A stretch of DNA of 64,000 nt from Psammoneis japonica (lineage: Eukaryota). The position numbers and the translations under genes are program-made. The notes below the pieces were generated by a model. It searched no databases. It saw nothing but the letters and a program-made list of their open reading frames with translations, and was not told the origin of the DNA. Position 1 is the stretch's first letter, and every line of letters starts with the position of its first letter. The stretch spans positions 248,001 through 312,000 of the forward strand of contig QPGO01000019.1 of NCBI GenBank assembly GCA_008632985.1. Reading direction: 5' to 3'. Of this stretch, positions 36,601 to 64,000 are shown piece by piece.

Positions 36601-38330
36601 AGTTGATGAGCTGTGCTCACTTGCAACAACAGAGCTGAAAGAACGGGGGTGACATCAACCATGATGAGAGTCCTGCCACATGTCACCACTTTGAGACAGC
36701 TGGAAGAGATCACAAACACCATGAGTGCTCTTGTCAATGACTTCTTAAGTCAGACTTGACATGATTTTGACTGCTGGCTGCAGGTGATGCAATTGAAAAG
36801 AAAGCATGAGAATTGGGCATGTCATGGGCAACTGTTTTAAAAAAATGCTCTGGCAACATGCCAAAAGGAAATGGCAGCCACAATGACATCTAAATTGGGC
36901 AGCACAAAGCTTGTGCAACAAGCAACGAATGGCAAATGACAGAGCATTTTTTGGTGATTTGGATGGCCAATGCAACACCAGCAGAGTCAATGTGGGACCA
37001 ATCACCAGCTTGTTTTGCATGATGGGAAAATGTGCTTTTTTCCCTGAGAACTTTTAGCTCCCAAAAGCAACACCAAAGAGTGGCCTTCAGCTCCAGCTTT
37101 GCAGCCATGCAGCACCCAACAATGATGCTGAAGTTGCACCGCCTTTTCACAAACTGTCTCCTGGAACTCTCCTGCCAAATCTCAAGAAGGTGTTTTTCTT
37201 TCATGTCATGGACAACAATGTGTCACTGACACCTGTTCTGGAGAAGAACATTGAACAAGGCAAACTCTCTGTCAGTGGACCAAGCCTCAAATGACAAGGC
37301 TTTTGATGCACTCTGTGACAAGTGTGCTGTGTGCTCGAAGCTTGAAGAGTCAGTGTTGTGTTGCTTTGTCAAAGAGAATGCCTTGAGTTGGATGCACTTC
37401 AACCCAGTGCAATCATGTTTCAAGATCCACAGCAGAAAAGCAAGGTTTAGAGGCTGACAAGCAGTGCCTGATTCCAACCTCAAATTGCAACAAAGGGAAA
37501 GAGACTGGGGTTGTGAAATGCCCTGACAGAAAGGCCCATCAACAGGAGAATGAGGGGAGAAAACAATGCAGAACAGCAGCAACAACAATGGCCGTGATTT
37601 TGTGAGAAGCGCACTTGTTGCAAAGTTGCCCAAGAGACATCAGACATGCATCAAGAGTGCAGGATGCCAAATCCAGCAGCAGATGGCAGATAAAATGGCA
37701 AAAGAGAGAGGAGAACAAAAACGGCAATGTGTGCCATGGTGGGTGTTGGGGTCGGCAGCCCACAGAGGAGGATGGATTGCTGATGCTGCTCTTCATGCCC
37801 CAGTCACAGACTGAAAGGAGCAGTGCATCAGCTGTGGTGCTGACAAACCATGATCTTCAGGTGGATGGTGGCCTGCAGTGCCACAATCAAGTGGCTGATG
37901 CTGTGGAAGAGCTGCAGAACAGTTTGTGCGAGGCACATCAACAACCCCCCTGGGCGGAGAGGGACGCACAGCAACAACGTGCCCAAAGCAACAATCTGGG
38001 TGTGGCGCAGCTCAGTCAAGACACGTGTTGTTCAGTTGCATGCAAGGAGGGTCATGAAGGCGAGAACAACAGATGTTGCAGCCCACTTGGAAGTTGACCA
38101 ACCAGCAGTGTGCCTGTGTTTTGCCGCCACATGTGCTGGCACAACAATGAGATCAATTTTGCAGCATGAGAGACACTGACCCTGTGATGAGTTCCCTCTC
38201 ATAACATGTGTTGCAGTGTATGAAGCAAAATCAAGGGTGCAAGCTCTGTTTTAACTTTCCTGCTCACGCTGCGGCACCCCACACAAAGTGCATGCAGCAG
38301 TCTCGCGCCAAATCAGATCGGACGGACGGA
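30650..38330. repeat. TpA-depleted block 3 (CpG-poor flanks, CpG-retaining core ~32040-34700)
   Basis: Abrupt loss of TA after ~30640 and return at ~38330; core contains the kinase pseudogene. Confidence 0.75.
32708..34449 (-). pseudogene. Degenerate protein kinase with N-terminal helical and possible PD-(D/E)xK-like segment (Crinkler-like architecture)
   Basis: G-loop CVGEGAASKVC, AVK lysine, H*DTRPENV (HRD with a TGA stop), LIDWGF, DDLESF; upstream VEPDF motif; in-frame TGA stops and one frameshift; Tyr absent. Confidence 0.75.
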
Positions 38331-38504
38331 CGGATACATCCCGAACCGATGACGTGTTGCTCGCGTCACTGAAAGAAAGTCAAGAACGCCTAGCGTATGG
38401 CTGGTCCACCACACAACTTTTCACACACATTTATTTCGATGGCGGAGGGAGATTTCAGATTGGTCAAAGCGAAAAAAGCAACACAACCTAACAACATCAT
38501 CACC

Positions 38505-39443
38505 ATGGCGTGTACGTCATCGTCACCTTTAATTGGAGTATTGGCTCTTCAGGGTGCCTTTGAAGAGCATCAGCAGTGTCTGGAAGCCGTTGGATGTCGT
38601 ACAATTCAAGTGAGTTGTAGTCCTCACAGTCACTTTTTTCTTACAAGAAGAACAATTCTCGATTCACTCACTCAATTCTTTTTATTAGGTCCGTACTCCA
38701 CAAGAACTAATTGGCATTGATGGAATTGTCCTTCCAGGCGGAGAATCGACTGCCATGGGTTTGATTGGAACTAGCAGTGGTGGTGGAGATTTATGGAAAT
38801 CACTCCAACAATTCGACAAGCCCACGTGGGGTACGTGTGCCGGCATGATTTTATTGGCGGAAAAGTGTGTCGGAGCCTCCGCCGTTATCGCACAAGGACA
38901 AGCCTGATTGGTGGTTTGAAAGTACTCGTGTGCCGAAACTACTTTGGATCGCAAATTTCCTCGTTTGAAATGCCTACACCGGGGCCACCGAATTCGAAAG
39001 AAGATTTTCCGGGAGTCTTTATTCGTGCTCCCGCCATTTTGTCGGTTGGACCCAATGTAGAGGTATTGGGAAAGGTTGTAGCAACACCGTGTCGACAAGC
39101 CGCAGTAGTGTTGCAACAATTGGATGAAAAGCTGGAGCGTGGAGAACAAGTCGCGGTAATGGGTGTTGTCGATGCGCTGGAACGAAACGCACATGGTTTG
39201 GAATACAAGGAGGTTGTGCAAAATGAAGCTGAAGAAGAGAAAAAGGATTCGCAGCTTGAAGAAATCCCAATTGAATTGCCTGGAGCGTCCCATGGGACCA
39301 ATGCACGCGAAGTGATTTGTGCGGTAAAGCAAGACAAGTTGCTGTGCACCGCCTTTCATCCGGAATTGACGACAGACTATCGTTGGCACTCGTATTTTGC
39401 CGACATGGTTAGAAAAGACATGGAAGATATAAAGAAATCGTAA
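38505..39443 (+). CDS. PDX2: Pyridoxal 5'-phosphate synthase glutaminase subunit; intron 38610-38688; one -1 frameshift at ~38905
   Basis: IGVLALQGAFEEH, LPGGEST, WGTCAGMILLA, RNYFGSQ, FIRAP, TAFHPELT. Confidence 0.95.
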
Positions 39444-39906
39444 TGAGGAGAAGGGTTGAAGTGAGTTGCGGATGCATGGAGAAGTAGTGGATAATGCTTC
39501 ACTACTTTTTGATCCACATTTTTGCCACCGAGAATGTAGTCGATCGATTCGACTTTTTGTATATGATCTTTATTCATTTTGTATATGAGTTAAAAATAAA
39601 CGTTCGAACTTTCCGTTGCATTTGTTTACTAAAATACTATGAAATGAATAGTTTATATCAGAAAGCTGTTGCTGCCGTTGAGATCACAAGGCGGATGACC
39701 CCAATCTGCTCACACAACCGACCTCACTCAGCAAACCCACAAAAACAACAAAACCAGTACTTTGCATTGACGGGATCGAGTTTCACAGGTACGATGCTTC
39801 AAAAATACATTTCAGTGGTGCTTTGCTTGTATGTGCTCTGGTCGATCTAACCATGCTTGTTTCGTGTTTCGGTGTCTGCAGGTCAACGACTGCATCAAAC
39901 CGAAAA

Positions 39907-40878
39907 ATGAGGCTTTTCAAGAGTATCTTTCTTGTCCCCATTGTAGTACAAGGCACGACATATTATTATGCTCCAAATCCAACTCCGTCGATAAAATACT
40001 ATTTCCCAACTCATTCGCCAACTCTGTCGGTTGTTCCCACGATATCTCCTGCCAGCAGCAACACTCTTACAGTGCTAGATGACAAATTCAAGCCATTCCA
40101 AAAGTGTGAGGGACCGTGTGTTCATCACGGTGATTGTGCTTCGGGTTTGTGTCAGAAGCGGTCCATGTTTGAGCCGGTTGCGGGATGCACTGGTGACGGG
40201 GAACGGGGAACCAATTATTGTTATGATCCTCAAGATGGACTTGCCGCTCCACAAGTGCCCGTTGGACCCATGCGTCTACGACAGGTATGTATGGAGTCTT
40301 TCCCCCTCAAACTACAATGCAAGCACATATGACGTCTTTCTAAATCCTTTCATGTGTCTCTCATTCCCTTTAGTATTGGGAAGATGGATTCATGTGGCAG
40401 GAGAACCCAAAGGAAATGTTTTGGTGCTTGGACGAAAGTGGCGGCGCTGGACGCAAACCAAAAGTGTTCGAATGCGATGATAGAAGCACAAAGTTTGAGC
40501 TGATTTATTCCAAAAATGGATATGGGGAACAAATCAAAGTGCACAAAGAGGACTTGTGTCTTGCAAGGACGGGAAGCACGCTTGTAACGTATGAAAAGTG
40601 CAACTCGACCAACATTGATCAACGGTGGCTTGCCAATTGGGTGTCCCGAAAGACCGATATTCGGCCCATTAATAAGCGTGACAAGTGTCTCACACAACAT
40701 CATGTAAGTTGAGAGTGCCTTTTGTCGATTGCCGTTCTTCGCTGTTTACTAATGCTGTTGCAACTGTTGTTCTTCAATCTTCTTCCTTTTGTAGCATCCT
40801 AAAAAGGGCGAAATTGTCAAAATCGAAGACTGTTGGACTGCACACTTTACATACACAGCCGACTGGCAAATCTATTAG
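39907..40878 (+). CDS. Frustulin-like cell-wall protein A (1 ACR domain + Trp-rich C-terminal domain); introns 40285-40373 and 40704-40794
   Basis: Signal peptide, Pro/Thr/Ser linker, CEGPC...DC...CQKR...GC.G.G...NYCYDP, then RLRQYWEDGFMWQE...CLTQHHHPK. Confidence 0.85.
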
Positions 40879-42616: not shown

Positions 42617-44209
42617 ATGTCAACGGTCAAGGGAAACAACATCGAAGAAGAATCATCATCAAGTCACCCCGAATACAATTTGATGAACGACATGAAACAC
42701 AACGCTCCTATTTCATCGAATCATGACAATATCATTTCCATTGACGATGCTATTGGTTAGTTGTTATGGCCTCATAGTTCTCCAGTACATTTTTTGTCAA
42801 CTCCCATTTTGTGACTGATCATCCTTTCTCATTCAGAATTACTTGGCTATGGCCCGTTTCAGTGTCGGATTCTCTGGGCAGCGGGGTTGTGTTTTGCAGC
42901 GGATTCCATGGAGGTGTTGCTACTCTCGTTTCTTTCCGTGATTTTGCAAAAGGAATGGGATTTATCGGAATCGCAATCATCGTTGATTACAAGTAGCATG
43001 TTTGTGGGTGCCTTTTGTGGTACACTCACACTGGGGATGTTGGGCGATTTAATTGGACGAAGGCCTGTCTTTACAATGACGGCGCTTATTATATGCATTT
43101 TTGGTTTCTTAACAGCCGTCTGCGACACATTTATGGAAGTGGTGTTGTGTCGATTTGCCGTTGGCTTTGGTGTTGGCGGGCTGACGGTTCCGTTTGACAC
43201 TCTTGCTGAATTTGTCCCGTCGTCTCGACGAGGAACCAACTTGTTGGTGATTGAATACTTTTGGACGGCAGGAACTCTTTTGGTTCCTGTAGCTGCGTAC
43301 GTGACGTTGGGTGACGAGAATGCACCAAACGAGTGGAGGTGGTTTGTCGTGCTTTGTGCCGTCCCTTGTTTGTTCTCCACAGTGCTTGGCCTGCTCTTTG
43401 TACCAGAGTCACCACGGTGGTTGCTTTCGAAAAACAAGCCTGATGAAGCTCTCGAGATTCTTCGAGAAGCAGCAACGCGAAACGGCAAGGATCATCTCGT
43501 GCTTTTTCCGACGGGGATTACGATAATTGACGAAGAAGAGGAAGGAGATTCCAATTGCTGCGACTTGTTGTCCAGCCAATGGAGACGCATTACGCTTTTG
43601 CTTTGGGTTGCTTGGGCTGGGTTTGCGTTCTTGTACTACGGGACCATTATCGCAGTGACTCTAGTATTCGTAGAAGAAGACCTTGGGGAGCAGCAGCAAG
43701 GATTCTCGTTTGACTATAGTGCGATTCTTACAAGTGCATCCTCGGAACTCGCTGGAACAACCTTGGTGATTGTATTGATAGAACGCATTGGACGCATCCC
43801 CTCGCAAACCCTCTCCTTTATTGGTGGCGGATTTTCCGGTCTCGTCCTGTGCCTCTTGGCTACTCAAGAGGATGCGATACGATGGCAATTGATTGTATCC
43901 GCCTTTTTGGCGCGCATGTTTTTCATGGCGGCAAGCTGCACCACATGGATATCAACCGCTGAAATCCTAACCACCGAGATTCGATCGACCGGACATAGTG
44001 CCGCAAATGCGGTGGCTCGTGTGAGCGGTGCTATCAGTCCCTTTGTCGTTTCGAATACGACGCCGTTTGCCGTGATTGGTGCGATGATTCTTGGCGTGAG
44101 TATTTGCACCGGCGCCTGTACATGGCAGCTTCCGGAAACCATGGGGAGAGTCATGGGTGCAAAGGATCTCCATCACGGCGACAAGAACGTTGGAGCCGGG
44201 ACGGAATGA
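42617..44209 (+). CDS. MFS transporter, SV2/SVOP-like; intron 42756-42836
   Basis: IDDAIE|LLGYGPFQ, FAADSME, LGDLIGRR (motif A), AEFVP..RG, PESPRWL, IERIGR, RSTG, LPET; about 12 hydrophobic segments. Confidence 0.93.
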
Positions 44210-44349: not shown

Positions 44350-45873
44350 CTACACAGCCAACACTATCTCGAAAAAAGTGCTGACGACAAGGAGTGCAAT
44401 GGCCCAAGCTCCCCATTTAGTTAGGGAAGAAGAGGATGTGTTAACACAAGAACATTCTCCCATCTCTACGACTTGTTCGGTGGCCATCATTCCCTGGTCC
44501 TCGTGCTCCAAATGATGACAATGCACCATGACTTTGGAGACAAAGGACATTGGTTGATATCGAATGACAGCATTTTTCATGATGGTATCATGCCAGTCCC
44601 CAATCTTGTCGTATTCTGTCTCTGAAATATCGATCAACTGGAAGGGGTACACGTGCTGATGGTATGGATGTTTGCCGTCTCTAATCTTGATGCGGCGCTC
44701 CACAACCGCGCCAAGATGAGATTGATGAAAGACGAGCGACTCGTCGTATTTGATTCCATTCACGGCCTTGTCTTCGAATTGTGTGGAACAGGAACACCCA
44801 TTATCTGGTGGAGTTGAGACTAAACTTGTAAGGTATGGGGGATAATCAACACGCCAGGGCTGTATTGTATCGCTCTCTACTCTCACGGACGACGTTGCCA
44901 AGGTCCCAATCACTGTATCCCCATTTTTCATTTCAAATTCAGTAGAGGTGTCCATGCATCGGACCAAGAGATCCGCTCGACCAGCAGCTCCAACTTGAGC
45001 TTTACGAATAACACGCGGTACGTCTGGAACGTATATTCCGTCCTTGGCCAAGAGCAGCATCTCGCATCCTTGTATGGCAAGATCCAGTGTATCACGCTTC
45101 CAGGCTGCATAAATGATTCGCAATCTCACCCATTCACCAGAATCCAATGTAAGGACGGGCTTTACCTGTCCATTAATGGTCAAATAGTTACCGTTATTGT
45201 TGTTGGAAACCGAAAACAAGCCATCGCCCGTTTTCTCTGCAATTTTTTGAATCTCGTTCCAGTCCATTTGTTGCATGACCATGATGACATTTCTAGCATT
45301 ACCAACTACGTCAGGGACAGTCCCCGGTTCATCTGCCACCACAACAGCCAGAGCCGCTCCACCAGCCACATGCAAGGCGGAACTTCCGTGTCGGTGCGGG
45401 TGCAACCAGTGTGTTCCCGCCATGTGCTCGGGTGGGACTTGAAATTGGTATTGAAACGATTCACCCGGTTTTACTACGAGACTTGTATCGTCCGATGGAA
45501 GTTCTCCCGATATGAACAGACCATGAAAATGAAGATTGGTTTCATCGGGAGCCGACAATTGATTGAGTGTAAAGCCAATAATACCCTGATCATCGTCTTC
45601 TAGTGCATTTGTAAAGTTTACCGACACGACATCTCCGGCTCTTATAATCAAGGTGGGTCCAGGAATTGTCCCATTCAATGTGCGTGTTGTCATTGTATAG
45701 TCGGGTGTTTCAATCGTTGTCTTTATCATTTGTAGGGAAATGTTGAGAAAGCCCGAAACAGACGATTCCACCACGGTTGGTTGCATCATCAATTCTTCTT
45801 CTCGAGACGACGAAACGGACGACGACAACCATAAAACAACACAAAGCGACGCTCTCCGGACGTATGATTTCAT
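44350..45873 (-). CDS. Multicopper oxidase, secreted, with C-terminal hydrophobic (TM/GPI-like) tail
   Basis: Four Cu-binding motifs: NLHFHG, WLHPHRH, HPYHQH, HCHHLEHEDQGMM; intronless. Confidence 0.93.
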   Translation of the reverse strand: MKSYVRRASLCVVLWLSSSVSSSREEELMMQPTVVESSVSGFLNISLQMIKTTIETPDYTMTTRTLNGTIPGPTLIIRAGDVVSVNFTNALEDDDQGIIGFTLNQLSAPDETNLHFHGLFISGELPSDDTSLVVKPGESFQYQFQVPPEHMAGTHWLHPHRHGSSALHVAGGAALAVVVADEPGTVPDVVGNARNVIMVMQQMDWNEIQKIAEKTGDGLFSVSNNNNGNYLTINGQVKPVLTLDSGEWVRLRIIYAAWKRDTLDLAIQGCEMLLLAKDGIYVPDVPRVIRKAQVGAAGRADLLVRCMDTSTEFEMKNGDTVIGTLATSSVRVESDTIQPWRVDYPPYLTSLVSTPPDNGCSCSTQFEDKAVNGIKYDESLVFHQSHLGAVVERRIKIRDGKHPYHQHVYPFQLIDISETEYDKIGDWHDTIMKNAVIRYQPMSFVSKVMVHCHHLEHEDQGMMATEQVVEMGECSCVNTSSSSLTKWGAWAIALLVVSTFFEIVLAV

Positions 45874-46264
45874 GCTTATGAAATGGAATTGTCAGAAAGA
45901 TAAAAAGTGACGTTGTTATTGATTGCGGCGGCAGCAGAATTGGCCATGGTGAAATGCCGACAAAAAAATCGCGATCTTCCGGAGATTCGACTAACACGAC
46001 TCGCCTGAACCCAAACCATATCGCTCTTGATCTAAAGTAGACTACTAACATTATTTTCTTAGCTTGTTGGACTTCTTTTTCTCTACGAAGAGTTTACTAT
46101 ACCTAAATCCAGAAAACTCTATTGTTGATCGTATTTTACTACCAGAGTAGCTCTGTTTTGGTCAAGCAATGATCTTACCACATATAACAATAAACTTAGC
46201 TCCTATTGTGCTTTATAATACTGCACAATGGCGGCAGAGCCTTTCTACAACATGCACTCTTTTT

Positions 46265-47617
46265 CTAATACAATTCCCAATATCCCGTGGTGGTAAAGTG
46301 TGCCTGCCAGCAATTTTGAATGAAAATGAATTCGCCAGGACGCGGATGCTACAAAAGACACGGTAGAGAAAGAAGAACAGTTCAGATGACTCCAGCACAA
46401 TGATTAGCAGCTCTGTCATGGTGGCGACGGTACACTTACATGATGCTGCGTAATGCAACCCGCTCTTCGGACAGGCCGAATATCAAAACGACGACTCAAC
46501 CAGTTTCCCTTCCAGCGCTGGTCTCGATCATCTTCATCGCATCTCTCAAAGGTTACATTTTGATTGCCCGTCCGGGTGAGGCAAATGGAACTGCCTCGTA
46601 CCCGAATCATGTCACCGCTGCCCCTCAAGTATACGAACTCGTACCGGGTGGAACTACTCCTGCAATTTTGAACGACGGGAACCGAGCCAGAACCGCCCTC
46701 TGCCACCATGCACCATCGTGACTCGGAACTCTCTTCTTGCCACAAGTATCCTTCTTCCCAGTACTCTGCGGAAGAAGAAGAAAAAAGAAAATCAAAAGTA
46801 AGTGTTCATTGTCACCAATGACCATCATTATGACAGTGGATCCAATCCCAACCCAACAAACTTCAATGGAAACGAGGGACCTACCTTTCAATCGAAATGA
46901 ACCACCGGGCAACTGCGGTATTTCCGGGCCGTCGGCTGGATCCCAGCAATAGTTCTCCGATTCTTCGCCTTCGCCGTCACAACCCTGTACAGCTTCCCAT
47001 GCCGATCTTCGTTGGCATCTGAGATTTCCAAAACAGTCGGTATGATCATCGCACGGCCCTTCACATTTGCGAAAGGGTCGCTCGTCTTGATCCAACAATA
47101 TCAGATCCGAACGACTGGGCGCTTGGGACGGAGACATGGTTGGAGCGGGACTAGTAGTGGGACTTTGTGAAGGAGTCCGAGTGGGCGGAGCTGTCGTGGG
47201 CGACAGGGTTGGGAAATTGGTGGGCGCGGGTGACATGGTGGGTGCTGAACCCGTGGGCGCCGCCGTCGGGGTTCCCGTGGGAGACCGAGTGTTGGGATCA
47301 TAACAATAATCTTCTCCCTCATCGGGATCGCCATCGCACCCAATTACAGGCTCATCAGCGCGACGCTGCTCACAGAGTAGGCCATCCCGGCAATCATCAT
47401 CGTCGTCACAATCACCTTGGCACGGACCAAGGCCTTCCTCGGGCCATTCCTTCACACCCTCTCCTTCTCCATTATCACCAATGTGTTCAAAAACTGGTTT
47501 CGTGGGTTGTAGAACCCTTTTCCTCTCAACTTCATCTCCAGTATCCTTTTGTTTCGCATCGACAAGAACGTCACAAAGCAAAACAAAAACTAAAGGCAAA
47601 ACACAGAGAAACCTCAT
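46265..47617 (-). CDS. Frustulin-like protein C (2 ACR domains + Trp-rich domain); introns ~46767-46884 and 46349-46438
   Basis: CQGDCDDDDDC (canonical C-E/Q-G-D-C-D), PT/PS linker, CEGPCDDHTDC, YWEEGYLWQE. Confidence 0.88.
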
Positions 47618-48413
47618 GGTTACACCGTGTTGTGTGTACGGGGACAAAAACACACGATTGACAATTGGATTCCTCGTCGATCTCCAGGTCAATGTCAACA
47701 CAAGCTAATTGTATTCAATATAGGTTGGAGTGACAGAAAGATAAAAATCAATGGAAACGACAACAATTTGTTAGACTGTTCGAGTCAGAAATCAATGGAT
47801 ACCGCACACGCACAGCCACAACAAACGCGGAAAAGTAACATTATGTAGGAAACGACAACCAACGAAGCGACTTTCCCACTTTATTCGAGCCAATCCAAGG
47901 ACTTAGTACCGCGTGCTTTGGTCAGTACAAGAGAGAAGTACTTGCTTACCTTTTGTAGACCTAACACACTTGCTCTACAGTCTACAGTGATGACGATCAA
48001 GTGGATACCCAGTGGAGGATCGCGAAGAAGGTTGTGAACGGTTGAACGGGATGATGCGTTGTTGCATTTTTTGGAATTTTGGATCGCGCCGTCGCCGTTG
48101 AGACAATTCTGACGTCTACAATCCTGAATACATTCAATTTATTTGAAAAATCTGAAGATTCATTCAACACTACAATCATGGATAAGGTTAATACCCACTG
48201 TAGCCTATTGTGTACATCCATATTGTGCATCAGAATGTCTTCCATTTCTTCGCTACTGTACACAGAAATATTGTGAGCGTACACCATTCTCCTCCTGACC
48301 GACATACTGTAGCTACGTAGAGTAGCTAGCTAGAGAGGTCTAGTAGTAGCTAGAGTAGAGCTAGAGTTTCTATTTGCACTAACTTAGTCCCTCTCTCTAG
48401 AGCTCTAGAGCTC

Positions 48414-48726: not shown

Positions 48727-50239
48727 TCAATACGGGTTCCAATAGCCGGTGTAGGTCATGTGAGAAAGCTTGCAATTAAATGAAGTAACAATTTCCCCGG
48801 TTCTTGGATGATGGTGTTGCGTCACGCAGTTCCCCGGCTTCTTCGCCGGGCGAATATCAAATCGTCTTGATGTCCAGTTCGCTAAGAACCGTTGGTTTTC
48901 TGTTAGGAAAGTCGGAGAGAGGATGAAGAACAGTTCAGAGGCGCGTTTGAGTAAAAAAAAGCAAATCACAACTCAACTAGAAAAGACAAAATGTCATGTA
49001 CATACCATTGTTTTTGTCGCATGATTTAAAATAAACAGCGTTGGACCGAGTGCGTTCGAGGCACCTGTCTCTACCACGGACTTTGATCATGTCTCCCGGC
49101 CCAGGTACGTACACAATCTCAAATTTGGTGCCCGATCCGCAGCTGCGAATCTGTGGTGGTGAAGAGTCTTTCAAACACCACTTTGCTTCGCTCTTGGTCT
49201 CCTGCCAAAAGTATCCTCGTTCCCAATATAGCCTTAAACAGAGAAAAACAAAGCCAGCATGAGATCAACCCTTGAAACATAGTAGATACGAGCTATGCCT
49301 TTTGACCTACTTCAAACGAAATCCAGGAGCGAGCAATTCAGGAGGAGCCGGGCCATCACGCGGATCGTAGCAATAATTTGCACCAGCTTTTCCATTGCCC
49401 TCGCATCCTGGAACATACTCGAATCCACTACGTCTTTGGCATAACAGCCCACCTCTGCAGTCCTCGCGTTTCCTGCAGTGTCCTTCACACTTATTGAACG
49501 GCTTCTTCCGATCGTCAAGGATAACCAAGTCGACACGCGTTGGAGACATGGTCGGAGACCTTGTCGGAAACTCGGTTGGAGATGCCGAAGGCGATAAAGT
49601 TGGCGCTGGAGAGATAGTAGGCTCTCTAGCGGTAGGAGATAATGTGGGTGGCGGCGTTGGCGCTGGAGTGTTGGGATCATAACAGTAGTCACGGCCTTTC
49701 TCCGGGACTCCACTGCAGCCAATTACATGCTCGTTGCCGTCACGTTGCTTGCATTTCAAGCCATCTCGGCAATCCCTATTTCTATCACAGTCACCTTGGC
49801 ACGGTCCAAGGCCTTCACGAGGCCACACTTTGCCATTGACAGGGCTTTTGTTGTTTCCTACGTATTCGTAAAAGACCGGATTGTTGGCACGTGTCACGGG
49901 AAACGGGTTGTTGCTGTTACGATTAAACGCATCGACACCATCCGTTTGAACTTCTTCTCCATCAGCATACGCCTTTCTTTTCTGAAGCACCGATGGCCTT
50001 CCCCGTAAACCTTGTTCTGTGGTTGTTTTTTCCTGATTCCTATGGATGGCACCATCCAATTCCGATGGCGGGGTAACAGATTTGACGTCGGGAAAAGTAT
50101 TTCGTTTTTCTTTTGTCAACCGTGATCTATCATTCTTTGGTTTCCTTGTCTTCTGTAATGACGTCTCGTCGGCATTGCAATAATGAATACCCAAAGCAAC
50201 TAAGATCACAGTTAATACAGCTAAAACAGGAAGCTTCAT
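48727..50239 (-). CDS. Frustulin-like protein D; introns ~49233-49310 and 48900-49005
   Basis: CQGDCDRNRDC, CEGHCRKREDC (basic variant), LKLYWERGYFWQE, CVTQHHHPR. Confidence 0.88.
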
Positions 50240-50901
50240 TTTTGATCTATCTTCTCAGAAGAAAACAGGGTTGGAATCGTTTGACAAACCACTTGACTGT
50301 TTAGCGAGAATATTGAATCTGGTAGTAAGAACCAAAAAAAAGAAAACGAGGTGAGTGACTCACGAACACAACCAGGACGAAACATGATTGTCACAGCCAT
50401 ACGAATCCATCAACTCTTCCACAGTAAGCTTAAAATAGTCTTTAACACGGATATAGCCGATTGTCAGCACCATGGACTTTGTCAATTCCTCACTTTGTTC
50501 GCTTACCTTCTCGGTTGTGTTGCTTCATGGGCTGACTGCTTCTGATGAATTCGGATTTTGAATTTATTTTGCTGTGAAAGTCAAAAATTTCAGCAAGCTT
50601 CAGGTTTATATACCCTTGATATGATACATATCATTGCAATTGGAGAAATTTCATTAAAAGCTGTATACACAAAAAACACTCTTTATTCAATGTCTGCTCT
50701 TTAAAAGCGATATCAACTGTTCCAACGTAAAAATTTGTAAATACTCATGAAATCACGTAGATCAAATTTCTTCACAAGACTCAGCTTTATGCATGATAGC
50801 GGCATTTCAAGATACGAATTCAACGGACAATCTCGGGATCCTCCGATCGTGCGATGCCGCAGCGCAAAGCGAGCAGGCGGGCGGATAGGATACTATGAGT
50901 A

Positions 50902-51791: not shown

Positions 51792-53094
51792 TCAATACCT
51801 TTCCCAATAGCCTGTGCTTGTGAAGTGAGCAAGGTTACACTCGAACGATGTAACAACTTCCCCTGCTTTCGGGTGATGATGTTGAGTGATGCAGTGCGTC
51901 GGTTTGTTGGCCGGCCGGATATCGAATCGTCTGGATGACCAGTTTGCCAAAAAGCGCTGGTTGATGTTGGTAGGTTCGCAATCTCGAAACGACACAGCGT
52001 TCGCTCTCGTACGTTCCAGGCACCTGTCTCTGTCACGAACCTTGATCATGTCTCCGGGCCCTTTCATATAAACAATCTCAAACTTCGTTCCTGATCCACA
52101 ACCGAAAACCATTGGCGGCGAAGTGTCTTTCATGCACCACTTTGTTTCCCTATTGGTCTCCTGCCAAAAGTATCCACGCTCCCAATAGAGGCTGACAAAC
52201 AAGGGAAAGGAAACAGACAAAATGAGACTGTTTTCTTTTTGCCTGCTGAAATCGAACAAGGATTGAAACGTACCGTATACGAAAGCCAGGCGAAGGTAGC
52301 GCCGGAGGAGCGACACCGTCAAGGCCAGAGTAACAATAATTCACGCCAGGGCTTCCTGCCCCTTCACATCCAGGAACAAACTCATAACCGCCGCGCCTTT
52401 GACAGCGAAGACGCCCGCGGCAATCGTCGTGATCCCTGCAATTTCCTTCACACTTGTTGAAAGGTTTCATCGAGTCGTCAAGTTCCACAAGGTCGACACG
52501 AGTTGGAGACGCAGAGGGTGAACCTGTCGGAAAGTCGGTCGGAGAAGCCGAAGGCGCCAATGTTGGTGCTGGAGAGCTAGTTGGCTCCGAAATAGTCGGA
52601 GCAGCCGATGGAGTTGCTGTCGGTGCCGGGGTGTTGGGATCATAACAATAATCTTCTCCTTCAAGGGCGACTCCATCGCAACCCATCACGGGCTCGTCGC
52701 CGCTACGACGCTCACAGAGCAAGTCACCAAAGCAGTCATCGTCATCGTCGCAGTCACCTTGGCATTCTTGTAGCCCATCGTCAGGCCATTCTTTGCCATC
52801 CACAGCTCTTCCATTGTTACCAATGTATTCGAACACTGGGTTTGTTTGCTTCAAAACCGCATTGTCCAGATTCTTGACCGCGGCACCCTCGCTGGCTTCA
52901 TCTACGTCTTGTACGGGAGTGTCCTGCACGCGAACGCCAGTGGCGACATGTTCGTTCAACTGAAGCGACCTCACGTCTTGAGGATTTTCTTTTTCGGCTC
53001 GTCGCACTTGCGCAGTGCCACTGCAGCAACAAAGAGCGGCGAGGACCAACGTCAAGACGACAGCAAACCGAGAGTTCGTCGCGACTCTCCTCAT
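51792..53094 (-). CDS. Frustulin-like protein E; one intron ~52192-52273
   Basis: CQGDCDDDDDC, CEGNCRDHDDC, LYWERGYFWQE, CITQHHHPK; closest to D. Confidence 0.88.
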
Positions 53095-55469
53095 TTTACC
53101 TATCAGGAAGGAAGTGACCAGAGGAAAAAAGAAATAAACTGAGATTTTGAAAGTGACGTCGAAACTTCTCCAGCATGCGCAAGAGGTACGTTTCTAGTCG
53201 CGATTCGAGTGTGTTCAATCATCACTTACCTTCTCCTTTCCAAAGTTCTTCGCTTATGCTTGAGAGCAATCAGATGTTGATCCTTTACCTACAAGCTGTT
53301 GATCGGCTTTCTACTCACCTCAGAAGTGCGGAGTCAGAACTGCATCGGTCGTGTATCCGCCAAAAACTTTGTGCGAAAAGAGTGGTCCGTGCCGAAGAAG
53401 AAACGCATTTTTTTGGTGGCTGATTTCCACATTTTGAAATTTTCAATCTTGCAAATTTGTCGATAAAGTCCCGCCTAAATATTCCGTTTTACTGATCCTC
53501 ATAGCATATATATTTGGCCAAATTTTACGACACAATCATAACATTTAGATCCGAATATTACGAAAAGTTGCTCACATACGACATCGTACTGTACTGTATG
53601 TACGACAGTACTGCAGTCATTTCATCGTCATTTACTCTCTTCATAAATGTGATTATAAAAAACAAACTTTTACATGGTTATCTTTCGTAATGAGCCAAAA
53701 AAGTAATATTCACATCTATTTTCGTATAAACTTTAACGGAACAGAGTAACGGAAACGTTGGATACTGCCTGCGCGCTGGTTTGTTGCACAACTTGAAACT
53801 AGCTACTCTAGTAGTAGAGGAGTCTACGTGTACCGGTACATAAAGCCCTACTGTACCACACTCGACTCTCGGCCGGGCCGATCGACTTCACTCACCTCCC
53901 GTACAATTCTACTGTACGATCCACGTAGTCGTATGCACCGGCACGTGCAGGGCCCCACTGCTGGCGGAGCGAGGCGAGGTCTCTCAGCAATGTGCCGTCC
54001 AATCTGCAAATCCAATCTCTCGAAGTGTGGGATGCCCACAACTTGGCACGTGTGTGTCTGCAACAGGGACACAATCATCCTGTCAGAAAGGGGGTGTCTC
54101 ATGTGAGGTGCAAGTTGAGTGTTTGCTTTGTGCACAAACAACCCCCCCCCCCCCCGTCGCCCAGTCTGAAAGGGAATGTCTCATGTGCCGGGCAGCAAAT
54201 CGTGGGTTGAGTCGCACTTGCTTCATGGCACACTTTGGGACAAGAGCTGCTGACTGGCAAGCTTTTGCAGTGGTTGTTTTGGCATGGCAGTCTTGGCCCA
54301 TCTCCCAAAATCTCGGGTGATTTCCCACCCCTCCCCCACTGAGACGCAATGATGCATTGTGCACACCAAAATGCGCTGTGTTGGCAATTTGCATTTGTGC
54401 CAGAACATTGGGTGAAACACCTGCTGTGCATGCTGCCTGCCACCACATGCTGCTTGTTGGAGCACTTGTTGTTGCGTGCCTGTTTCTTCATCAGAGGCCG
54501 CAGTTGGTGGCGCCCACTTTCCTTCGTAAATTTTTTAATGTGCGCTGTCAAAATTGTTGACAAGCAAAATTTGAAATCTTCCGGCAACAGCGCTCAACAA
54601 ATTGCAGTTGTTTTTTGTGTTTCATCTGATGTCTCGCTGGCTTTTCTTGCACAAGCTTCAATCAAAAATGCACACAATGTTCAGTTCAATTGGAGTTGAC
54701 ATCTGTGTTTTGTGATGCATGGTTTGGTTTCCTTTTGATGGTCGTCAATTTGAACTTGGTTTCTGCTTTGGCCCTCCTCAACTCACATGTGTGTGTGTTT
54801 GCACGTGTGCAGTCTACTTCCTGCATGTGCGTGACCCACCCTCCATTTTAAATTTCTCTCAGTGCTTCCAAGATTTTCACAGCCGCTTGGTCTGCAGCAT
54901 TTTCAGCATTTTTTTCACATGCACAATTTTCCACACACTTTGTGACAGTGCATCCTCTCCCCAAAAGTCAAAAAGCAAGATCATGCACTGTTGTGATTCA
55001 TGTGGATTCTGCGTGTGGTTGCAAATCTGCAAATCGACAACCGGCCATGGCGGTGAAAGACTTCACCCCGTTGGCCGATGACAGCAGCTCAATGCATGGT
55101 GAAACCTGGGCACAGCTTGAGTTTCATGATTGTGGGTGTGCTGTCACAAATCTGCCGCATCCTGAATGCTGAGCTGCTGGTGTGTTGTTGTGTGCACACA
55201 TGTCATGAAAAGTTCTTTGCCACATGTGACACTCTTCAAAAAAGGCATGCACAAAAAGAGCTTCGTTGGTTTTTGATGCACTCACTTGCGTTGCATCCGT
55301 CTTCTCCAACATTTGTCCAGATCCAGAAAGACTGCAGAGGCAGATGAGAGTGCTGGGGAGGCAACCCATTGGAGGTTGCCTGAGCTGTCAAGAGCTCATT
55401 TTCAAAGGCTTCCCAAGTCTCTCCACTGTTTCTGGTCCATGCTCTAAACATGTCATCAATGAACCATCC

Positions 55470-55837
55470 TGTTGAACCGACGAGTCAATGGCGGCAAACG
55501 GGAATCTTATAAAGAATCCTCCGCTCTCGTCACACTCGTCCTGGTTGCTTGTGCGGCTGTGGTTTGCCCAGAAGATTGCTCAACACAAACTTCGTTTGCT
55601 TGTCAGATGTTTGTTTTAACAGATGCTTCCCAGTGCCGATCGACACAGATGACAAACCAGATGGTTCACTCTAAAGAGTGAGAATGTCGTTGCGTGAATG
55701 ACAGATTGATGACAAAGAAGACACAGTCATCAGAATGCACACGTCATCGGATTGTGCACGTGTGGAGCCTCACATGTCTTTCACTTCAATTCATGTGTGT
55801 TCGGGTCACTTTCACCCCGCACTCAAATGCTCCAACA
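55470..55837 (-). repeat. 3' LTR (368 bp)
   Basis: Aligns end to end with 62518-62886. Confidence 0.96.
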
Positions 55838-55849
55838 CACTCCTGCCGC

Positions 55850-57280
55850 TCACATCGATTGTTCTTGAACGTCGCAAGCGGGAACAGCGCCCTTTGGAAT
55901 GACATCGTATCCTGTCACATTGGGAACACCTGTCCCTTCCACACTCAAGTCAGCTTCGGTGCTGCAACACCACTGCGTCTGATTGGGATTCAAAAAGTCG
56001 AGCATCACATTGAATGAATCGGTGACACCTTCGACACAACGCACGAATTGGGTCACACAGTCACGTCGGATTTGTTCCTTCACGACATCGTCACTGAAGC
56101 CACCTTCACACTTGGTCTCCAGGTTCGCAATGACGTCCTTGATCCATCCATGGATTGCATCTGGACGCAACTCAAAAAAAGCCACTTGGCTGATGAGCCA
56201 CAGGCTTCCGCGATCAGATGGCCAGACAGTGTTGAGGCTGAAGAACATTGCCAGCTTGAATCCATCGTGTGCCACTCCATTGCCATCAATGGCCAATGAG
56301 TGCCGGACGAGATTGTCCATGTTGCGATTCCGCTGACGTGATTCAAAAGGATCCACGTTCAAATCCACAAGTCCTCCAACTTTGCCGTGGGCATCAACCC
56401 CACACAACAGCAAACCACAGGTTCGCGACAAGCCAAGTCGGTCAATGTCACTGCAGTCTGGTGCAAGCTTGAGCATGTTGCCTCACGATCGCCACTGGTT
56501 GGATCGCCTTGTGTCAAGAGCTTGCGGTCTGCCGGCTGAGCACTGCCAGCAATCTCAAGCAGCATGTGCCGTCTGGCTCTTGTTCCTGATCTTGAGCAGC
56601 CTCTGTTCCATGTCGTCGTGGAGAGAGAACATCGGTGTTGTGGCGGACACACAGTGCCGCATGGGAGGCGACCATTTCTTGTGCAGTTTGAAGACTGACT
56701 CCATGAGACCAAAACGTTGTCTCCACAGTCTCATGAACACCTCCTTGAATTGCTGACGGTGAGTCACGAATCACTCTTCCCAGCAAATCATGTGATGGTC
56801 CAGCGTGTCCATCGCTGAGACCGGCTCTTCGGCAGGTGGATCGCCATCTGCCATTTCTGCGTTTGTGTTGTGACTCGGTGCAAACGCTCTTGTCCAAAGG
56901 GAGAGTTGGTCCCTTGCTCGTTTGTGCGCTCTTGTGGCGCGTTCTTGGAGAATTTCCTCCTTTCTTCCGTTCCATAAATCCACAGGAAGACTGTCGGCAC
57001 GCAGGTCGCCCATCCTGATGAACTCATCCTTGATGCTTGCATCAATTGCGCAGGCGCCCACCACCTCTAAAAAATGGTTGTTCAGCCAACGATTCAACAC
57101 TGTGCCTGTTGTGTTGTGAGTGACATGTTCTTGTGGCCTTTTCTCATTGCACAAGTGCCGCGTGGCCCTTTCTTGGTGCACCGCTTGGTTGATGAGGTCT
57201 CCGACACGTTCGTTTGGTGCCGCTTCTAACACGGCGCTCAGGATGGTTTGATCAATGTCCACCTCCTCGTCGTCATTCAT
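55850..57280 (-). pseudogene. Additional ~476-codon ORF between pol and the 3' LTR, unknown function
   Basis: ORF-track pieces 56771-57280, 56555-56767 and 55850-56476 share one frame, broken by three TGA codons; protein-like composition. Confidence 0.65.
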
Positions 57281-57375: not shown

Positions 57376-60300
57376 TCAGAATTCTCGTCTGACATCACAA
57401 ACAGGTGTCTCACCTGTCACCATCAGGACTTGACGTCCCATGACGGCTCGTTTGAATTTTAAAAACTTTTCACCTTGCAATGGCTTGGTCATGAAACCTC
57501 CAATCATCGCGTCGGCAGGACAGCACTCGATGGTCAGGTTGCCCTTCTCGACTTGGTTGCACACGAAGAAGCATCGCATGTTCAGCGCTCTGGAATGCTT
57601 GCCTGCGCTCCGACGAACGGCATGGGATGTTCTTGTCGATGGGACATCCTTGGTGCTCCACAAACAGCTTCGTCCATAGGATCATGGTCATTGCGTCGTC
57701 AACACCCACCAGCTCGGCTTCTGTGCTGCTTTGGGTGTTCAATTTCTGTCTTCGTGACATGGCTTGCATCACTCCATCACCCATTGTCTTCACTGCTCCA
57801 GTGTGGCTCTTGAAATCTGGATGCACCGCGAAGGATGCATCGACATGTCACTTTGTCACTCGGAGATCTTTTGCGCTCAGGGCAGCCACCTCGTTGCGCA
57901 CTCGATTCAGACACTTGAGGCACCAGATGAGCTTCGCCCAGTCTTTGTTGGTGGGCTCTCTTGTCCGTGTGCATGATGCTGATGTCGTCGGATGGACGTC
58001 CATGCGTCCACGTTTGGATGCGAACAGTCCTTTCGCTGCCCACGTGTGAAACATCTGTGCTTTCTCTGGCGGCAATTTTGTTCCACCCACCTCAAATGGG
58101 TTCTCCCCTGCTGGTGTCACAGCAAAATCTGTGCTCTTGATCTTTTCTGGAAATTTGTCAATCACAGATCCGACACACTTTCTCATGTCTGCCATCACCT
58201 TTCCTTTGTCGGTGAAGTCCAGGATCATGCCGAGGCAGTCATGTTTCGGACCCCTCGTTGCCACGACTTCGCCGTGACTCCCGTGCTTCCTGTTCAACCA
58301 GTTGAGGAACTTGTCATTAACTTTTGGGTTGACGTGGCTTGACAGCAAGTTGTCCACGTGAAATCGCACTGTGCGCTGCTTTCCGTTGACAACTCGGTTG
58401 GCAATGCACGGGTCACATGGGTTGAACTTGAACCCCACCCTTTCCAAGTCTTTACGGAACTTCTTGCACCACAGCAGTGCGGCAACAAGCATGCCACAGA
58501 TTGCTCTGATGACTTGGACGTAAAGGACTCTCTTTCCTTTTTCTAGGACCACGTGCGGTCCATGCAAGTTCGGATCAATGCTTGCCAGCATGTCCACAAG
58601 TGAACCTGCAATCTTCATCATGATTCGTTCCTTGCCTTCCTTGGGTTCTGGAACTTCTGTTTGAATGAATGCGTTGGGGATGTCAGCGCTCACAACATTG
58701 CGTCCCTCGTCTGCATCGATCACCGCAGTCATCAGGATTCCTTCCAATGATGCTGTTGGACTGGCTGATTCGTCTTTGTCCAGCCATTCTCTGGATGGTT
58801 TCCCGTTGTGTGACATCCGCCCTTTGACGCGACCATCGCGTTTCTCTGCAAGGAACATCAGGGCTCTCATTGCCTTCTTCCTCTCGGTCGGAGTCATGCT
58901 TTTCACTGAAACCGGTTGGAAGCAAACTCGGTCGTGCAGTTGTTTCATTTCTTTCCGTGAGGCATCATGTCCTCGCTGTCCAAACAGTTTGAGACCTTTG
59001 TGTGGTGGATGTTGCTGACCAAACGACATCTCCTTTCCTGCTTGTGCTCTGTCGTTGTGTTCGCACATGAAAAATGCAGTGACCAATCCTTCTTCACAGT
59101 CACAGTCTGTGTCGTCTTGTGGGTTGGGACTCCCATTGGTCAGGACATTGTGGCAATGCTCAAGCTTTCCCAGCTCTTGTTCTTCTTCTTGGGTTCTCGC
59201 CACTCCTGCAAAGCGGACTTTCTTTGTCGTGTCACTTGTCTTTGCTTTTGCATTGCAGCTGCGTCCTGATCTTGTGGCTCGGCTTGTTGTTTCTGCCGAT
59301 TCTTCTGGTTGTTTCATCTCTTCTTGGCATTGATTTGGACTGGATCCATCTTCTGCAAGGATCTCATTGGTTTCTTCGTGTTCTTCGTCAGATTCACATT
59401 CGTCGTTGTAATCGTCATTGTCATCGTTGTCGCTGTTGCTGTCGCTGTCGTTGTCGCTGTCGCTGTCGTTGTCGTTGTCGCTGCCGTTGTCGCTGTCGCT
59501 GTCGCTGTTGTCCACTCCTGCAGTCCAATCAGTGTCACGAAGATTGTCGCCACATTTGCCGGTGAACTTGAAGTCCTTGATGCCTTGACGAGAGGCCATG
59601 CGTTCAACCGCCCGAACGTGGGTGTCGGTTAAAGGGACTGCAGTGCATTTGCAGGGGTTAAGAAGTTTCCCTGTGTGGAGATTCACAGTGCAGTTTCCCC
59701 TTTTGTCCGTGTCGCAACAGGGGCGTGGGCAGATGCTGTCGATCCCACGTGTTTCCATTGCATTTGTGGGGGAATTCTCAACATGTGAAAGAACAAATTC
59801 GCTGAAAGTGAAAGCAAAATGCTTGTTGCAGTCGAGATTTCTGCGTTGCAAGATGGCATGTGGACTGCAAATGTCCAAGATGCCCTCCTTTTGCGGGCGC
59901 ACATTCGACATCACAGTGTTCTTGATTGCCACGTGCTCACACATGAGCTTGGGCATTGCCTTGTGTGGCGCGTGTTGAACGGCAGCTCTTGTCCGTTCCT
60001 CAATGGTTTGAACACTGCGCTCGACTTCAGGTGCGTGGTCCTTGGTGTTGGCACTGACAAGTTCAATGTCCATGCCGTCCGCAACGTCAGAAAGCATCTC
60101 TTTAAATTCAGGATCACACTCGATGAAGTCAATCTTGAAGGAAGCCTTGTTGCATTGGCGCAGAATGGTGTCCAGTGCGTCACACACGTGAACGTGCTTC
60201 TTGGACTTTAAACGCACGCTCGCTCAACATTTGATCATCTTGTCAATAGAATGGAGCAGCTTGACTCCACAAACCTCCATGATGTCAATGCATGGAGCAG

Positions 60301-62434
60301 TGCTGTCCTTCTGTCTCTCACAAAGTTCTGGCGGCAAGGAAACAATGTCGTTCCTCTCATGGGAACGGCGGGCGCGTTTGGATTTTCCTTTCACTGCGTC
60401 CACAGGTGGACCCCAAATGGCCACCATACGATCGGCGTCTTTGGGAACAATGTCGACAATCTTGACTTGGTTCGATCGCAGGAAGCACTTGCAATCCCAC
60501 ACACTGGGGATGCCAGCCTCGCAGTGGAATCAGAGAGCCTCTTTTGCCCTCGCGATCTCGCGTTTTGCATGCCCTTTTGAGTTTTCTTTGGCAGTCGGAA
60601 TCGCTGTCCCAGCAACACTGCCTGGCCCGCGCTTCTTGCGCTTCGATTGCTTGGATCCTGTCATGTTCATGTTCACATGTTGCTCTGCTTCTTGGAGCTC
60701 CTTCACGTGATCTAGGAATCCCTTGCTTGGTGTAAACGTGCATGGGCCAATGCTGTTTGCCTTGAACACTGCGACTTGCTTCCCCGACTTCTTGTCCAGC
60801 AAGCGGAATTCATCGGCTGCTTGCGTGTCATGGGTCACGTTGCACTTTTTCTTGACGTCTCGTAAACTGAGGATGTTCGCAATTGCATTCTTTGTCCCGA
60901 GTTTCATGTCACCCCATCCTGGCATGGTGCAGTCTTCATCCAGCGTGTCCACTCCTGTGTTTGTTGACAGGTCGATCTTGACCTTTGCTGGTCTGATGCT
61001 GTGCACGAGGTTCCCACTCGCTGCCATGCCAAGGGTGGATCCATTGTCGAGGATCAATTCATCTGACTCGATGTTTGATGAGCTCTGGTTCATGCTGACC
61101 TGTGTGCTCTCGTTCGTCACTTGCAAATGTGATGAATGCCAAGACCTTCTGTTTCCATTGGACCGCGACAACCTGACGCCACTGATTGAATCAACGCTTG
61201 TGTTGTCGTCTTCTGAACTGTTTTTGCCAGTTCGAGCCTGTGCGTGGCTTTGTCCCGGCAGTTCGGGCTTCTTCTTGGTGTTCTTGAACCACTTGTCACA
61301 GGGGATGTCGCTTCAGTGTTTGCACTTGTTGGACTTGTGCCCCCCCACACCACAACAAGCACAGATGATTGCCTTGTCTTGTGTGGTCTGTTGTGCATGA
61401 CTCTGGTCCTTCTTGTTTTTCTTGTCTTGATCGTTTCTTTTCAATTCGTTTCGCTTCCCGCTTCTTTTTTGTGGATCGTTGTCCTTGGGATGATTCAATG
61501 ACATGTCCACTGCCGAGTCCAAATCCTTCGGATGCGTGTCATTTCCGAGACTGCAGTCTCATGCCAGACTCTTCTCAAGACTCTTGTGATGGCAATCATC
61601 GCTGTTCTGAATGAACAGACATGTCGTCCATGTCTCGCATGCATCCTTCTTGAGTTTGTCCTTTTGTGTCCTGGTTCCCATGGTGCACTCCTTGGTGTTC
61701 TCGATGAAACCGTCAAGGAATCTATCTCCCATTCCTTCTTTAGCAGCATCGCGTTGATTCTTGAATCGCAACAAGCAGTCATTTAGTGACTCATGTTCTT
61801 GGTGTCTGACGTCAAGCAAGGCAGACAAGGCCTTGGTGAACGTGTGGAATGGGTGACGACCTCTCATGGAGTCGCATGTCAGGGACTGCATCAGTTTCAA
61901 TGACTTGATCGGGTCATCCCTGATCGTGTCAAAACTGGGATCTGCCTCCACCCACTGTCTCATTAGCTTGGAGCAGTGATCGTCTGAGATCGTTGCAGCA
62001 GCCTTTGTCTTGTTCTTCTCAAACTCTGAGAGCTTTCCACGGCACTCGCCCAGTTCCGCCCTGCACTCATGGATCAACTGTCTGTTCTCGAGCTCTCTGT
62101 CTGCATCGTCTTTGGCTGCAGATGCCTTCAGCACTGGTTTCTTGCCACTGAAATCCTTGCAGTTCATGTCTTCCAGTGAATGGGTTAAGTGCACGCCCTG
62201 TTCGCACTCCTTCTGGATGCAACGCACTGGCTTTGTCTTGACTTGCTTGAATGTTGCGTTGCAAGAGTTGCTGTTCATGGAGGACGGATGGAATTTCATC
62301 TCCGTGGTGCAGTTCTTGCTGTTGAATGCCTTCTTCTTTGAGTTGGAAGATTTGTGGCCTTTGCTGCTGTTGCCGCGACCATTGTTGCGGTCTTTTCCTT
62401 TTCTGTGCGGGTTGCTCGACCCTCTGTCACTCAT
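57376..62434 (-). pseudogene. copia gag-pol polyprotein, disrupted
   Basis: Zn knuckle CACCGVGGHKSNKC, protease LILDNGST, integrase core (ECDPEF...HAPEVERS), RT SADIPNAF and FHVDN (from FHVDD), RNase H DASFAVHPDFKSHTG, STEAELVG, FMTKPLQG; several stops and frameshifts. Confidence 0.93.
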
Positions 62435-62517
62435 TGCACAGGCTGCTGATTGTCTCCTTTTAGACTGCAGACTTTCCAGTTAACAAGCACTTGTTGCTTG
62501 TGACTCTTTAGAGTGAA

Positions 62518-62886
62518 TGTTGAACCGACGAGCCAATGGCGGCAAACGGGAATCTTACAAAGAATCCTCCGCTCTCGTCACACTCGTCCTGGTTGCTTGT
62601 GCGGCTGTGGTTTGCCTGGAAGATTGCTCAACACAAACTTCGTTCACTTGTCAGACATTTGTTTTAACAGACACTTCCCCAGTGCCGATCGACATGGATG
62701 ACAAACCAGATGGTTCACTCTAAAGAGTGAGAATGATGTTGCGTGAACGACAGATTGATGACGAAGAAGACACAGTCATCGGAATGCACAAGTCATCGGA
62801 TTGCACACGTGTGGAGCCTCACACATCTTTCACTTCAATTCACACATGTTCGGGTTGCTTTCACCCCGCATTCAAATGCTCCAACA
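62518..62886 (-). repeat. 5' LTR (369 bp)
   Basis: Aligns end to end with 55470-55837. Confidence 0.96.
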
Positions 62887-64000
62887 CATCCACAGCACAG
62901 GAGGTGCAGGGTGAACTTGGTCATGCAGGCGGTGGTTGTTCCCATGGCCATTCTGGTGAGTGTGTTTTGTGGCACTCAACATGTTTTTTGTTTGCTCACG
63001 TGCTTTCTTTCTGTGTTTCATTTGAGTTGCAGGGGTGGAGCTGGGTGTTCAATGTCTTGCACCATGTGGGTGCTCAACATCTTCTTGCACCGTCACACAC
63101 CAGTGTCCATGTTGCTGTGGAGTCAGTGGCGCCAGATGCCCTGGTGCACCGGCAAGTGTGTGTTGCTGTTCATGTCAGTTCATCTGTGTTGTGCTCTCAC
63201 AACATTCTCTTTGCTTTTTGGCAATGAATGAGGTGGATCAGAGCAACAGCACTTCTGCTGCAAACTTGCATGCTCCAGAATCAGCAGCGTTGGATGCACT
63301 GGTGAGTCCATGTTGCCATTCCCATGGGTTGTGTTGGTTCATCCATGTCACACTCTCACAACATGATCCACTCTTTTTGGCGCTGAATGAGGTGGAACAA
63401 AGCAGCGGCACTTCAAATCATGGAACATGGAACAGCAGAGCTCCTGCTGCAAACTCGCCTGCTCCAGAATCAGCAGATGCACCGGCAAGTCTACATTGCC
63501 ATTCCTGTTGGTGGTGTCAGTCCATCCACATTGTGCTCTCACAACATGTTCTGCACTTTTTGGCAATGATCAAGGTGGCTGCCAGCAGCAGCACTTCAAG
63601 AAAGCGAGCTGCAACTGCTGCTGCAATCTCTGGGATGTTGTCTCCATCAGCGCCATCTAAGAATTTAAATGCAAACAACAAAACAAAATGTTTGTGGCAC
63701 AGTGCAAATGATTTTAATTTGCAGGTTCTGCAGGGACAGAGGGCGGGCACTCTCACAGGGAAAACGTGCCCCTGTTTCACAGTGAAACAATTTTCCTCAC
63801 AGGGAGGGGGGGTTAGATCCCACAGCATGAAAATGTTCATCTGCCACAGTTGACAGGTTCTGCAGGAACAAGGGTGGGCACTCTCACAGGGAAAATGTGC
63901 CCCTGTTACACAGTGAAACAAGTTTTCCTCACAGGGAGGGGGGGTCAGATCCCCAGCATGAAAATGTTCATCTGCCACAGTTGACATGTCATTGCCAGCT

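Follow-up and report, generated by a model that had tools for sequence, protein, structure and literature searches.

A diatom Ty1/copia-type retrotransposon lineage predicted to prime reverse transcription with its own RNA

Some LTR retrotransposons start minus-strand DNA synthesis not from a host tRNA but from a piece of their own transcript. In the parts of the literature cited here, such self-priming is described as proven for Tf1 and as proposed for the Tf1/sushi group, to which Tj1 and Tcn1 belong (PMC4600332, PMC7175516). In Tf1, the RNA's initial 11 bases pair with the primer binding site, and RNase H cleavage falls between bases 11 and 12 (PMC7175516, section concerned). For copia elements, the relevant part of Neumann et al. 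2019 predicts self-priming in the plant lineage TAR and cites an earlier proposal for Houba and Osr-1 (PMC6317226). The same part deals with half-tRNA-primed elements, namely copia, Ty5, Osser, and Bianca, whose sites correspond to a conserved segment inside tRNA-Met or tRNA-Ile. The fungal copia element GalEa carries a conserved hairpin site instead of a primer binding site, and the section consulted states that no complementary LTR sequence was found (PMC5445492). In the literature surveyed we found no bench demonstration of copia self-priming, and the open-access full texts searched yielded no report of self-priming in diatom elements.

Here we describe an element from a 64-kb stretch of DNA (the whole stretch analyzed, hereafter the window) together with its relatives in metagenomes. 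From sequence comparison and modeled RNA folds, we argue that a diatom copia lineage probably uses its own RNA, as Tf1 does, to prime minus-strand DNA synthesis, a reading to which we assign a probability of roughly 0.8. A sequence-only reading of the window had already proposed self-priming for this element and knew of no description of it in copia. Such descriptions exist, namely the published prediction for TAR and the earlier proposal for Houba and Osr-1 (PMC6317226, in the part cited above). The diatom/marine clade is a new lineage of a known priming kind, not a new mechanism. TAR resembles it in being a copia lineage (Houba and Osr-1 included) predicted from sequence to self-prime, as far as the cited part of that source describes it; compared by description, the two differ in their hosts, a land plant in one case and a diatom in the other.

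The element lies on the minus strand of the window (Table 1). Its LTRs begin with TG, end with CA, and are accompanied by a 5-bp target duplication, as in other Ty1/copia elements. Because the same GGATG flanks both LTR copies, the LTR boundaries are fixed to the base. The two LTRs are approximately 92% identical, and 20 of their 30 differing columns belong to 10 swapped dinucleotides that read TG in one LTR and CA in its counterpart; in several of the remaining differences CG is opposed to TG or CA. This looks like the decay of the same CpG sites on opposite strands, with many other CpGs left intact. Leaving CpG sites aside, the LTRs diverge by only about 1.6%, which makes the insertion younger than their 92% identity suggests. 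At the other end of the element, the junction between polypurine tract and LTR (R-GGAGTG followed by TGTTGG) is kept in most related loci, the LTRs being otherwise unalignable.

Table 1. Positions of the retrotransposon's features and of neighboring host genes in the window
Feature	Position	Strand	Basis or remark
5' copy of target-site duplication, GGATG	62887..62891	-	identical to the 5 nt after the 3' LTR
5' LTR, 369 nt, TGTTGG...CAACA	62518..62886	-	direct repeat with 55470-55837
Inferred U3 (promoter part of LTR), 158 nt	62729..62886	-	upstream of putative first transcribed base 62728
Putative self-primer, transcript nt 1-15 (start of R)	62714..62728	-	perfect complement of 62503-62517
Putative primer binding site, abutting the LTR end, no TGG	62503..62517	-	complementarity and predicted leader duplex
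gag-like open frame, 291 aa, from first ATG	61562..62434	-	no Pfam match
Degenerate pol (protease-like, integrase, RT, RNase H), same frame as gag	57436..61312	-	tblastn of intact relatives
Polypurine tract (plus-strand primer site), ends GGAGTG, adjoins 3' LTR	55838..55851	-	read in the sequence
3' LTR, 368 nt	55470..55837	-	second copy of the 15-mer at 55665-55679
3' copy of target-site duplication, GGATG	55465..55469	-	matches the 5' copy
Protein with four F5/8 type C (discoidin) domains	23989-25701		host gene
MFS sugar-type transporter	42815-44209		host gene
Multicopper oxidase	44350-45891		host gene

The window copy is dead because its gag-pol frame is broken by in-frame stops (at 61561, 61315, 60532, 60226, and 57850) and by a frameshift near 57611-57615. 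Its coding region can be read by tblastn with intact relatives: residues 14-1219 of one of them (P0041) match 61192-57512 at 39% identity, and the match is colinear. The window RT scores 20.5 bits against RVT_2 (PF07727), below the cut-off of 31.6, and four long relatives reach 34.7-45.4 bits, which is above this curated Pfam threshold. Moreover, the window RT region is 55-60% identical to hundreds of metagenome proteins (marine and other) carrying PF07727, and these relatives include one named from the diatom Cylindrotheca and one Ty1/Copia polyprotein.

The order of the domains is best seen in an intact relative with a single 1,676-aa frame (L004), which holds a CCHC knuckle followed by a DSG protease motif, a D-D-E region, the RT, and finally the RNase H. 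For the stretch upstream of its RT, a fold was predicted with a pLDDT of 84.3 from an alignment of 27 relatives, and the best PDB matches of this fold are retroviral integrases (E 2.5e-8, probability 1.0). Pfam did not detect the integrase, even at E up to 5, and a profile made from the polyprotein alignment gave only two weak, irrelevant matches among PDB sequences. An integrase placed before the RT is the copia order. Protease, integrase, RT, and RNase H follow each other in this way in the intact relative L004, and the window copy is colinear with P0041. The assignment to Ty1/copia, which had first been made from the letters of the window, is therefore well supported, both by the relatives above the RVT_2 cut-off and by the integrase fold upstream of the RT.

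As for the host, all named relatives of the window's MFS transporter come from diatoms (50-58% identity), and we thus take the host to be a diatom. The element shares several features with the diatom CoDi elements of Maumus et al. 2009 (PMC2806351), namely the diatom host, the order PR-IN-RT-RH, and the TG/CA ends of the LTRs, and also the 5-bp duplications and the abundance in marine metagenomes. By host and described features, "CoDi-like" is a fair label, and the window element is an inactive copy of a diatom Ty1/copia-type (CoDi-like) LTR retrotransposon. The main text of the CoDi paper (PMC2806351) does not treat primer binding, tRNA, or priming; the only "PBS" in it is a wash buffer.

The proposal of self-priming starts from the junction of the 5' LTR with the leader. 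The 15 nt directly after the LTR (62517->62503) match the reverse complement of 62728->62714, a segment inside the 5' LTR, without a single mismatch, and this LTR 15-mer occurs again in the 3' LTR at 55679->55665. All positions given in the sequence-only reading proved correct, and so did its remark that the TGG expected of a tRNA-type site is missing, since 62517->62503 starts otherwise. The bases flanking the 15-nt complement are unpaired on either side. When the full 64 kb were searched for the 15-mer with up to two mismatches, exactly three sites were found; the number expected from 100 shuffles is 0.17, and none of the 100 reached three. The element thus has a site that abuts its LTR and is complementary to a segment of this very LTR, as is characteristic of the self-primed class. 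Judged by its sequence, the pair has the geometry of Tf1 self-priming. The LTR copy of the 15-mer begins at an A preceded by TC, which agrees with the initiator-like (TCA) context that had been pointed out before.

To look at relatives, we used 80 metagenome loci taken from an RT-alignment scan of contigs (RT identity 43-60%). All of them were drawn with two RT motifs and therefore represent one clade. Together with the window element they make up 81 sequences of 369,174 nt, in which every perfect inverted pair of at least 12 nt with a gap of 40-450 nt was listed, with no motif or position presupposed. This gave 52 pairs. In 44 of them (from 41 sequences), one arm lies inside the LTR and the other, the site arm, begins at the LTR end (position 0 or -1); pairs of this kind are 13-19 nt long, mostly 15. 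The eight others (seven of 12 nt and one of 14 nt) lie elsewhere and are approximately at chance level. Inverted 13-mer seeds occur 153 times, compared with 2.05 on average and 7 at most in 20 shuffles. After near-identical copies were collapsed, 33 distinct versions remained, the window's included. In a 34th case (L025), the contig opens with the site, whose partner is located in the 3' LTR.

The pair is missing in 40 of the 80 loci, most of which seem short or begin inside or after the LTR, and a relaxed scan of 15 pairless loci (16-mers with up to two mismatches, upstream of gag) returned nothing. Many of the junctions stand after the 3' LTR, since the assembly of metagenome contigs has collapsed the two LTRs into one; the junction of LTR and site itself is unchanged by this. 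Signs of such collapse are widespread in the 80 loci (L001-L080): in many contigs the order is pol, LTR, site, gag, or the ends are identical. Many relatives with the signature retain an intact gag-pol frame (1,600-1,890 aa), which makes the pairing a feature of seemingly functional elements.

The 33 versions were brought into one register by numbering as nt 15 the arm base whose partner is the first base after the LTR (+1), and the pairs were counted by these coordinates. Nt 2-14 form Watson-Crick pairs in 33/33 versions, with three to four pair types at each position, and nt 15 pairs in all versions except one (32/33). At the edges pairing falls off: nt 1 pairs in only 16/33 versions, nt 16 pairs with the last A of the LTR in 16/33, and the positions further outward are paired in 4, 5, and 1 of the 33. 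From these per-position counts it follows that the duplex has a fixed length and sharp edges. Covariation can also be followed between single elements, as the window element and one relative (L024) differ by two pairs that are changed on both sides (nt 9 with +7 and nt 10 with +6). The arms hold no G-U pair, which is partly built into the method, as perfect 12-nt seeds were required. None of the 33 sites starts with TGG, hence there is no complementarity to a tRNA 3' end. The prediction that complementarity would be kept in relatives is thus borne out (33 distinct versions, all Watson-Crick at nt 2-14), and self-priming gains support from a pairing that persists across relatives with differing sequences.

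Nt 1 itself is an A preceded by C in 29/33 versions (TCA in 19, CCA in 9, and GCA in 1). The CA at nt 1 is an initiator-like context that stands at a fixed 15-nt distance. Together with a pairing that ends at this point, it gives indirect support to nt 1 as the putative 5' end of the mRNA. At the other edge of the duplex, the family falls into two parts. In 16/33 elements (e.g., L003, L024, L036, and L080), the arm extends by one T that pairs with the terminal A of the LTR; in the other 17/33 (e.g., L001, L008, L015, and the window), pairing begins right after CA. The primer may thus be 16 nt long in the 16 elements of the former kind, with the last LTR base copied from the primer.

The duplex also appears when whole leaders are folded in silico. 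It is part of the minimum-energy fold in 33/33 leaders, with 11-15 of its 15 pairs formed. In the window leader, the duplex of arm and site is worth -21.1 kcal/mol, its pair probabilities are 0.41-1.0, and the fold loses 17.4 kcal/mol if nt 1-15 are kept unpaired. The fold of this leader as a whole has z = -3.87 and is more stable than all 200 shuffles. A consensus fold of the 33 leaders, on the other hand, contained 0 pairs; it was built on a MAFFT alignment in which the 5' arms were out of register (the leaders measure 87-245 nt), an alignment that the pair counts given above did not use. Two further candidates were dropped: a conserved TATA-like box upstream of the arm, for which no consistent motif could be seen by eye, and a second conserved helix beside the duplex, which is present in the window fold only.

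These observations suggest the following cycle. Transcription would start at the A at 62728 inside the LTR, and nt 1-15 of the transcript would anneal to 62517-62503 directly after the LTR, as the complementarity and the predicted fold indicate. Annealing could take place either within one RNA or between two co-packaged RNAs. By analogy with Tf1, we infer that the element's RNase H would cleave the RNA behind nt 15, or behind nt 16 in those elements (about half) whose nt 16 is paired to the last A of the LTR. The freed 3' end would then serve as the primer, to be extended by RT through U5 and R. In retroviruses, the tRNA primer is copied during plus-strand strong-stop synthesis. If plus-strand strong-stop DNA likewise copies the primer here, the site would be rewritten from it in each cycle. 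Strict Watson-Crick pairing and a sharp edge at the putative RNA 5' end would follow from such recopying. The likeness to Tf1, Tf2, and Tj1 of the Tf1/sushi group (Ty3/gypsy) consists in a post-LTR site that is complementary to the element's own transcript start, which is putative in our case. The diatom lineage differs from them in its RVT_2-type RT with the integrase before it, and the gypsy-type order was not found; from Tf1 itself it differs in a duplex of 15 nt instead of 11. As far as sequences tell, the lineage would work like Tf1 yet stands outside the Tf1/sushi family.

Could the pairing instead be a long-range structure of the leader RNA, serving packaging, dimerization, or translation control, with some other RNA as the primer? 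We consider this improbable. It is true that the leader folds are stable and that the link of the duplex to priming is a prediction from sequence and fold. Moreover, the hairpin that takes the place of the primer binding site in the fungal element GalEa is described as having no known role in the part of the source cited (PMC5445492). GalEa resembles the diatom lineage as a copia element that lacks a tRNA-type site and has a short structured motif right after the LTR. As far as that part of the source goes, the two differ in that an LTR complement is present in every case of the diatom lineage and hairpin potential is no family feature there; the combination of a palindromic site and no LTR complement, which sets GalEa apart, is not what we find. 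Against a leader structure speaks the place of the downstream arm, which begins at the LTR end (position 0 or -1) in 44/44 LTR-linked pairs. A minus-strand primer has to be located right there, since the end of U5 is set by the 3' end of the primer. An alternative tRNA-type site with TGG is missing after the LTR in all 33 elements, and a pairing that is all Watson-Crick, sharp-edged, and fixed at 15 nt fits a copied primer better than a selected helix.

It is considerably less likely still that a fragment of a host tRNA (a half-tRNA) matching the 15-mer acts as the primer and that the complement in the LTR is incidental. Half-tRNA priming is known in Ty1/copia lineages according to the part of PMC6317226 cited above, and the hemivirus-type elements (copia, Ty5, Osser, and Bianca) share with the diatom lineage a site without TGG. 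Their sites, as described there, differ from those of the diatom lineage, which vary between elements and have their match in the LTR of the same element. A host primer would hold the site constant, whereas we see 33 different sites, each perfectly matched by a segment at the equivalent place in the LTR of its element. Rfam gave no match in the LTR and leader of the window (62300-63000, E up to 10). The window and 16 related loci contain no tRNA gene (0 in each search) with which the 15-mer could be compared. Least credible of all is that the complementarity arose by chance or as a by-product of the quasi-palindrome, which the sequence-only reading had raised as a caveat. That caveat is correct insofar as the window motif is indeed nearly self-complementary. 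It can nevertheless be dropped, as the local hairpins of the window motif are weak (-2.3 and -1.9 kcal/mol vs -21.1 for the duplex of arm and site) and palindromes are not a property of the family, the longest one averaging 2.5 nt in the 33 arms vs 3.5 in shuffles. The three sites in the window against 0.17 expected, and a recurrence in relatives far above that in shuffles, speak against chance as well; the scan, the covariation of the 33 versions, and the counts of 13-mer seeds together refute it.

Self-priming by the transcript's own 5' end thus stays the preferred reading, and it has several consequences. Outside the Tf1/sushi branch of gypsy elements, self-priming is not known to have been proven. 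So far, copia self-priming has been a sequence-based prediction for one plant lineage, to which a second copia clade from an unrelated host is now added. The comparative support is unusually clean, with a fixed 15-nt register, a start at A, covariation at every position, and sharp edges, and it yields a concrete prediction for transcript-start data from diatoms. In practical terms, tools that annotate elements by a site complementary to a tRNA will overlook these very common marine elements or place their bounds wrongly, and a rule based on the pairing of LTR and site could find and orient them. The lineage also bears on the old idea of self-primed early LTR elements, which is raised in the section consulted of PMC3601003. 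More speculatively, and in our opinion rather unlikely in this strong form, an abundant marine Ty1/copia clade may do without host tRNA primers, with primer and site forming a private, fast-changing key. It would be private and fast-changing (33 versions in 33 elements) because the element's own first 15 bases rewrite the site in each cycle. If true, such a key would isolate lineages from each other and would come with the loss of a conserved tRNA-type site that host small RNAs can target.

The DNA around the element shows some features of its own. Just upstream of the insertion site, 63164-63989 contains tandem-like repeats, namely three copies of approximately 92-124 nt with a spacing of 159-183 nt (71-76% alike) and two 119-nt copies with a spacing of 131 nt (82% alike). 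CpG observed/expected is 0.20 in 16001-24000 and 0.43 in 32001-40000, compared with 0.7-1.0 elsewhere in the window, and judging from base composition these two CpG-depleted 8-kb blocks may be older methylated repeats. Finally, three minus-strand frames of 315-359 aa without a Pfam match (46625-47704, 49307-50254, and 52150-53193) sit in a repeat with a period of about 2.4-3.0 kb and look like a tandem gene family.
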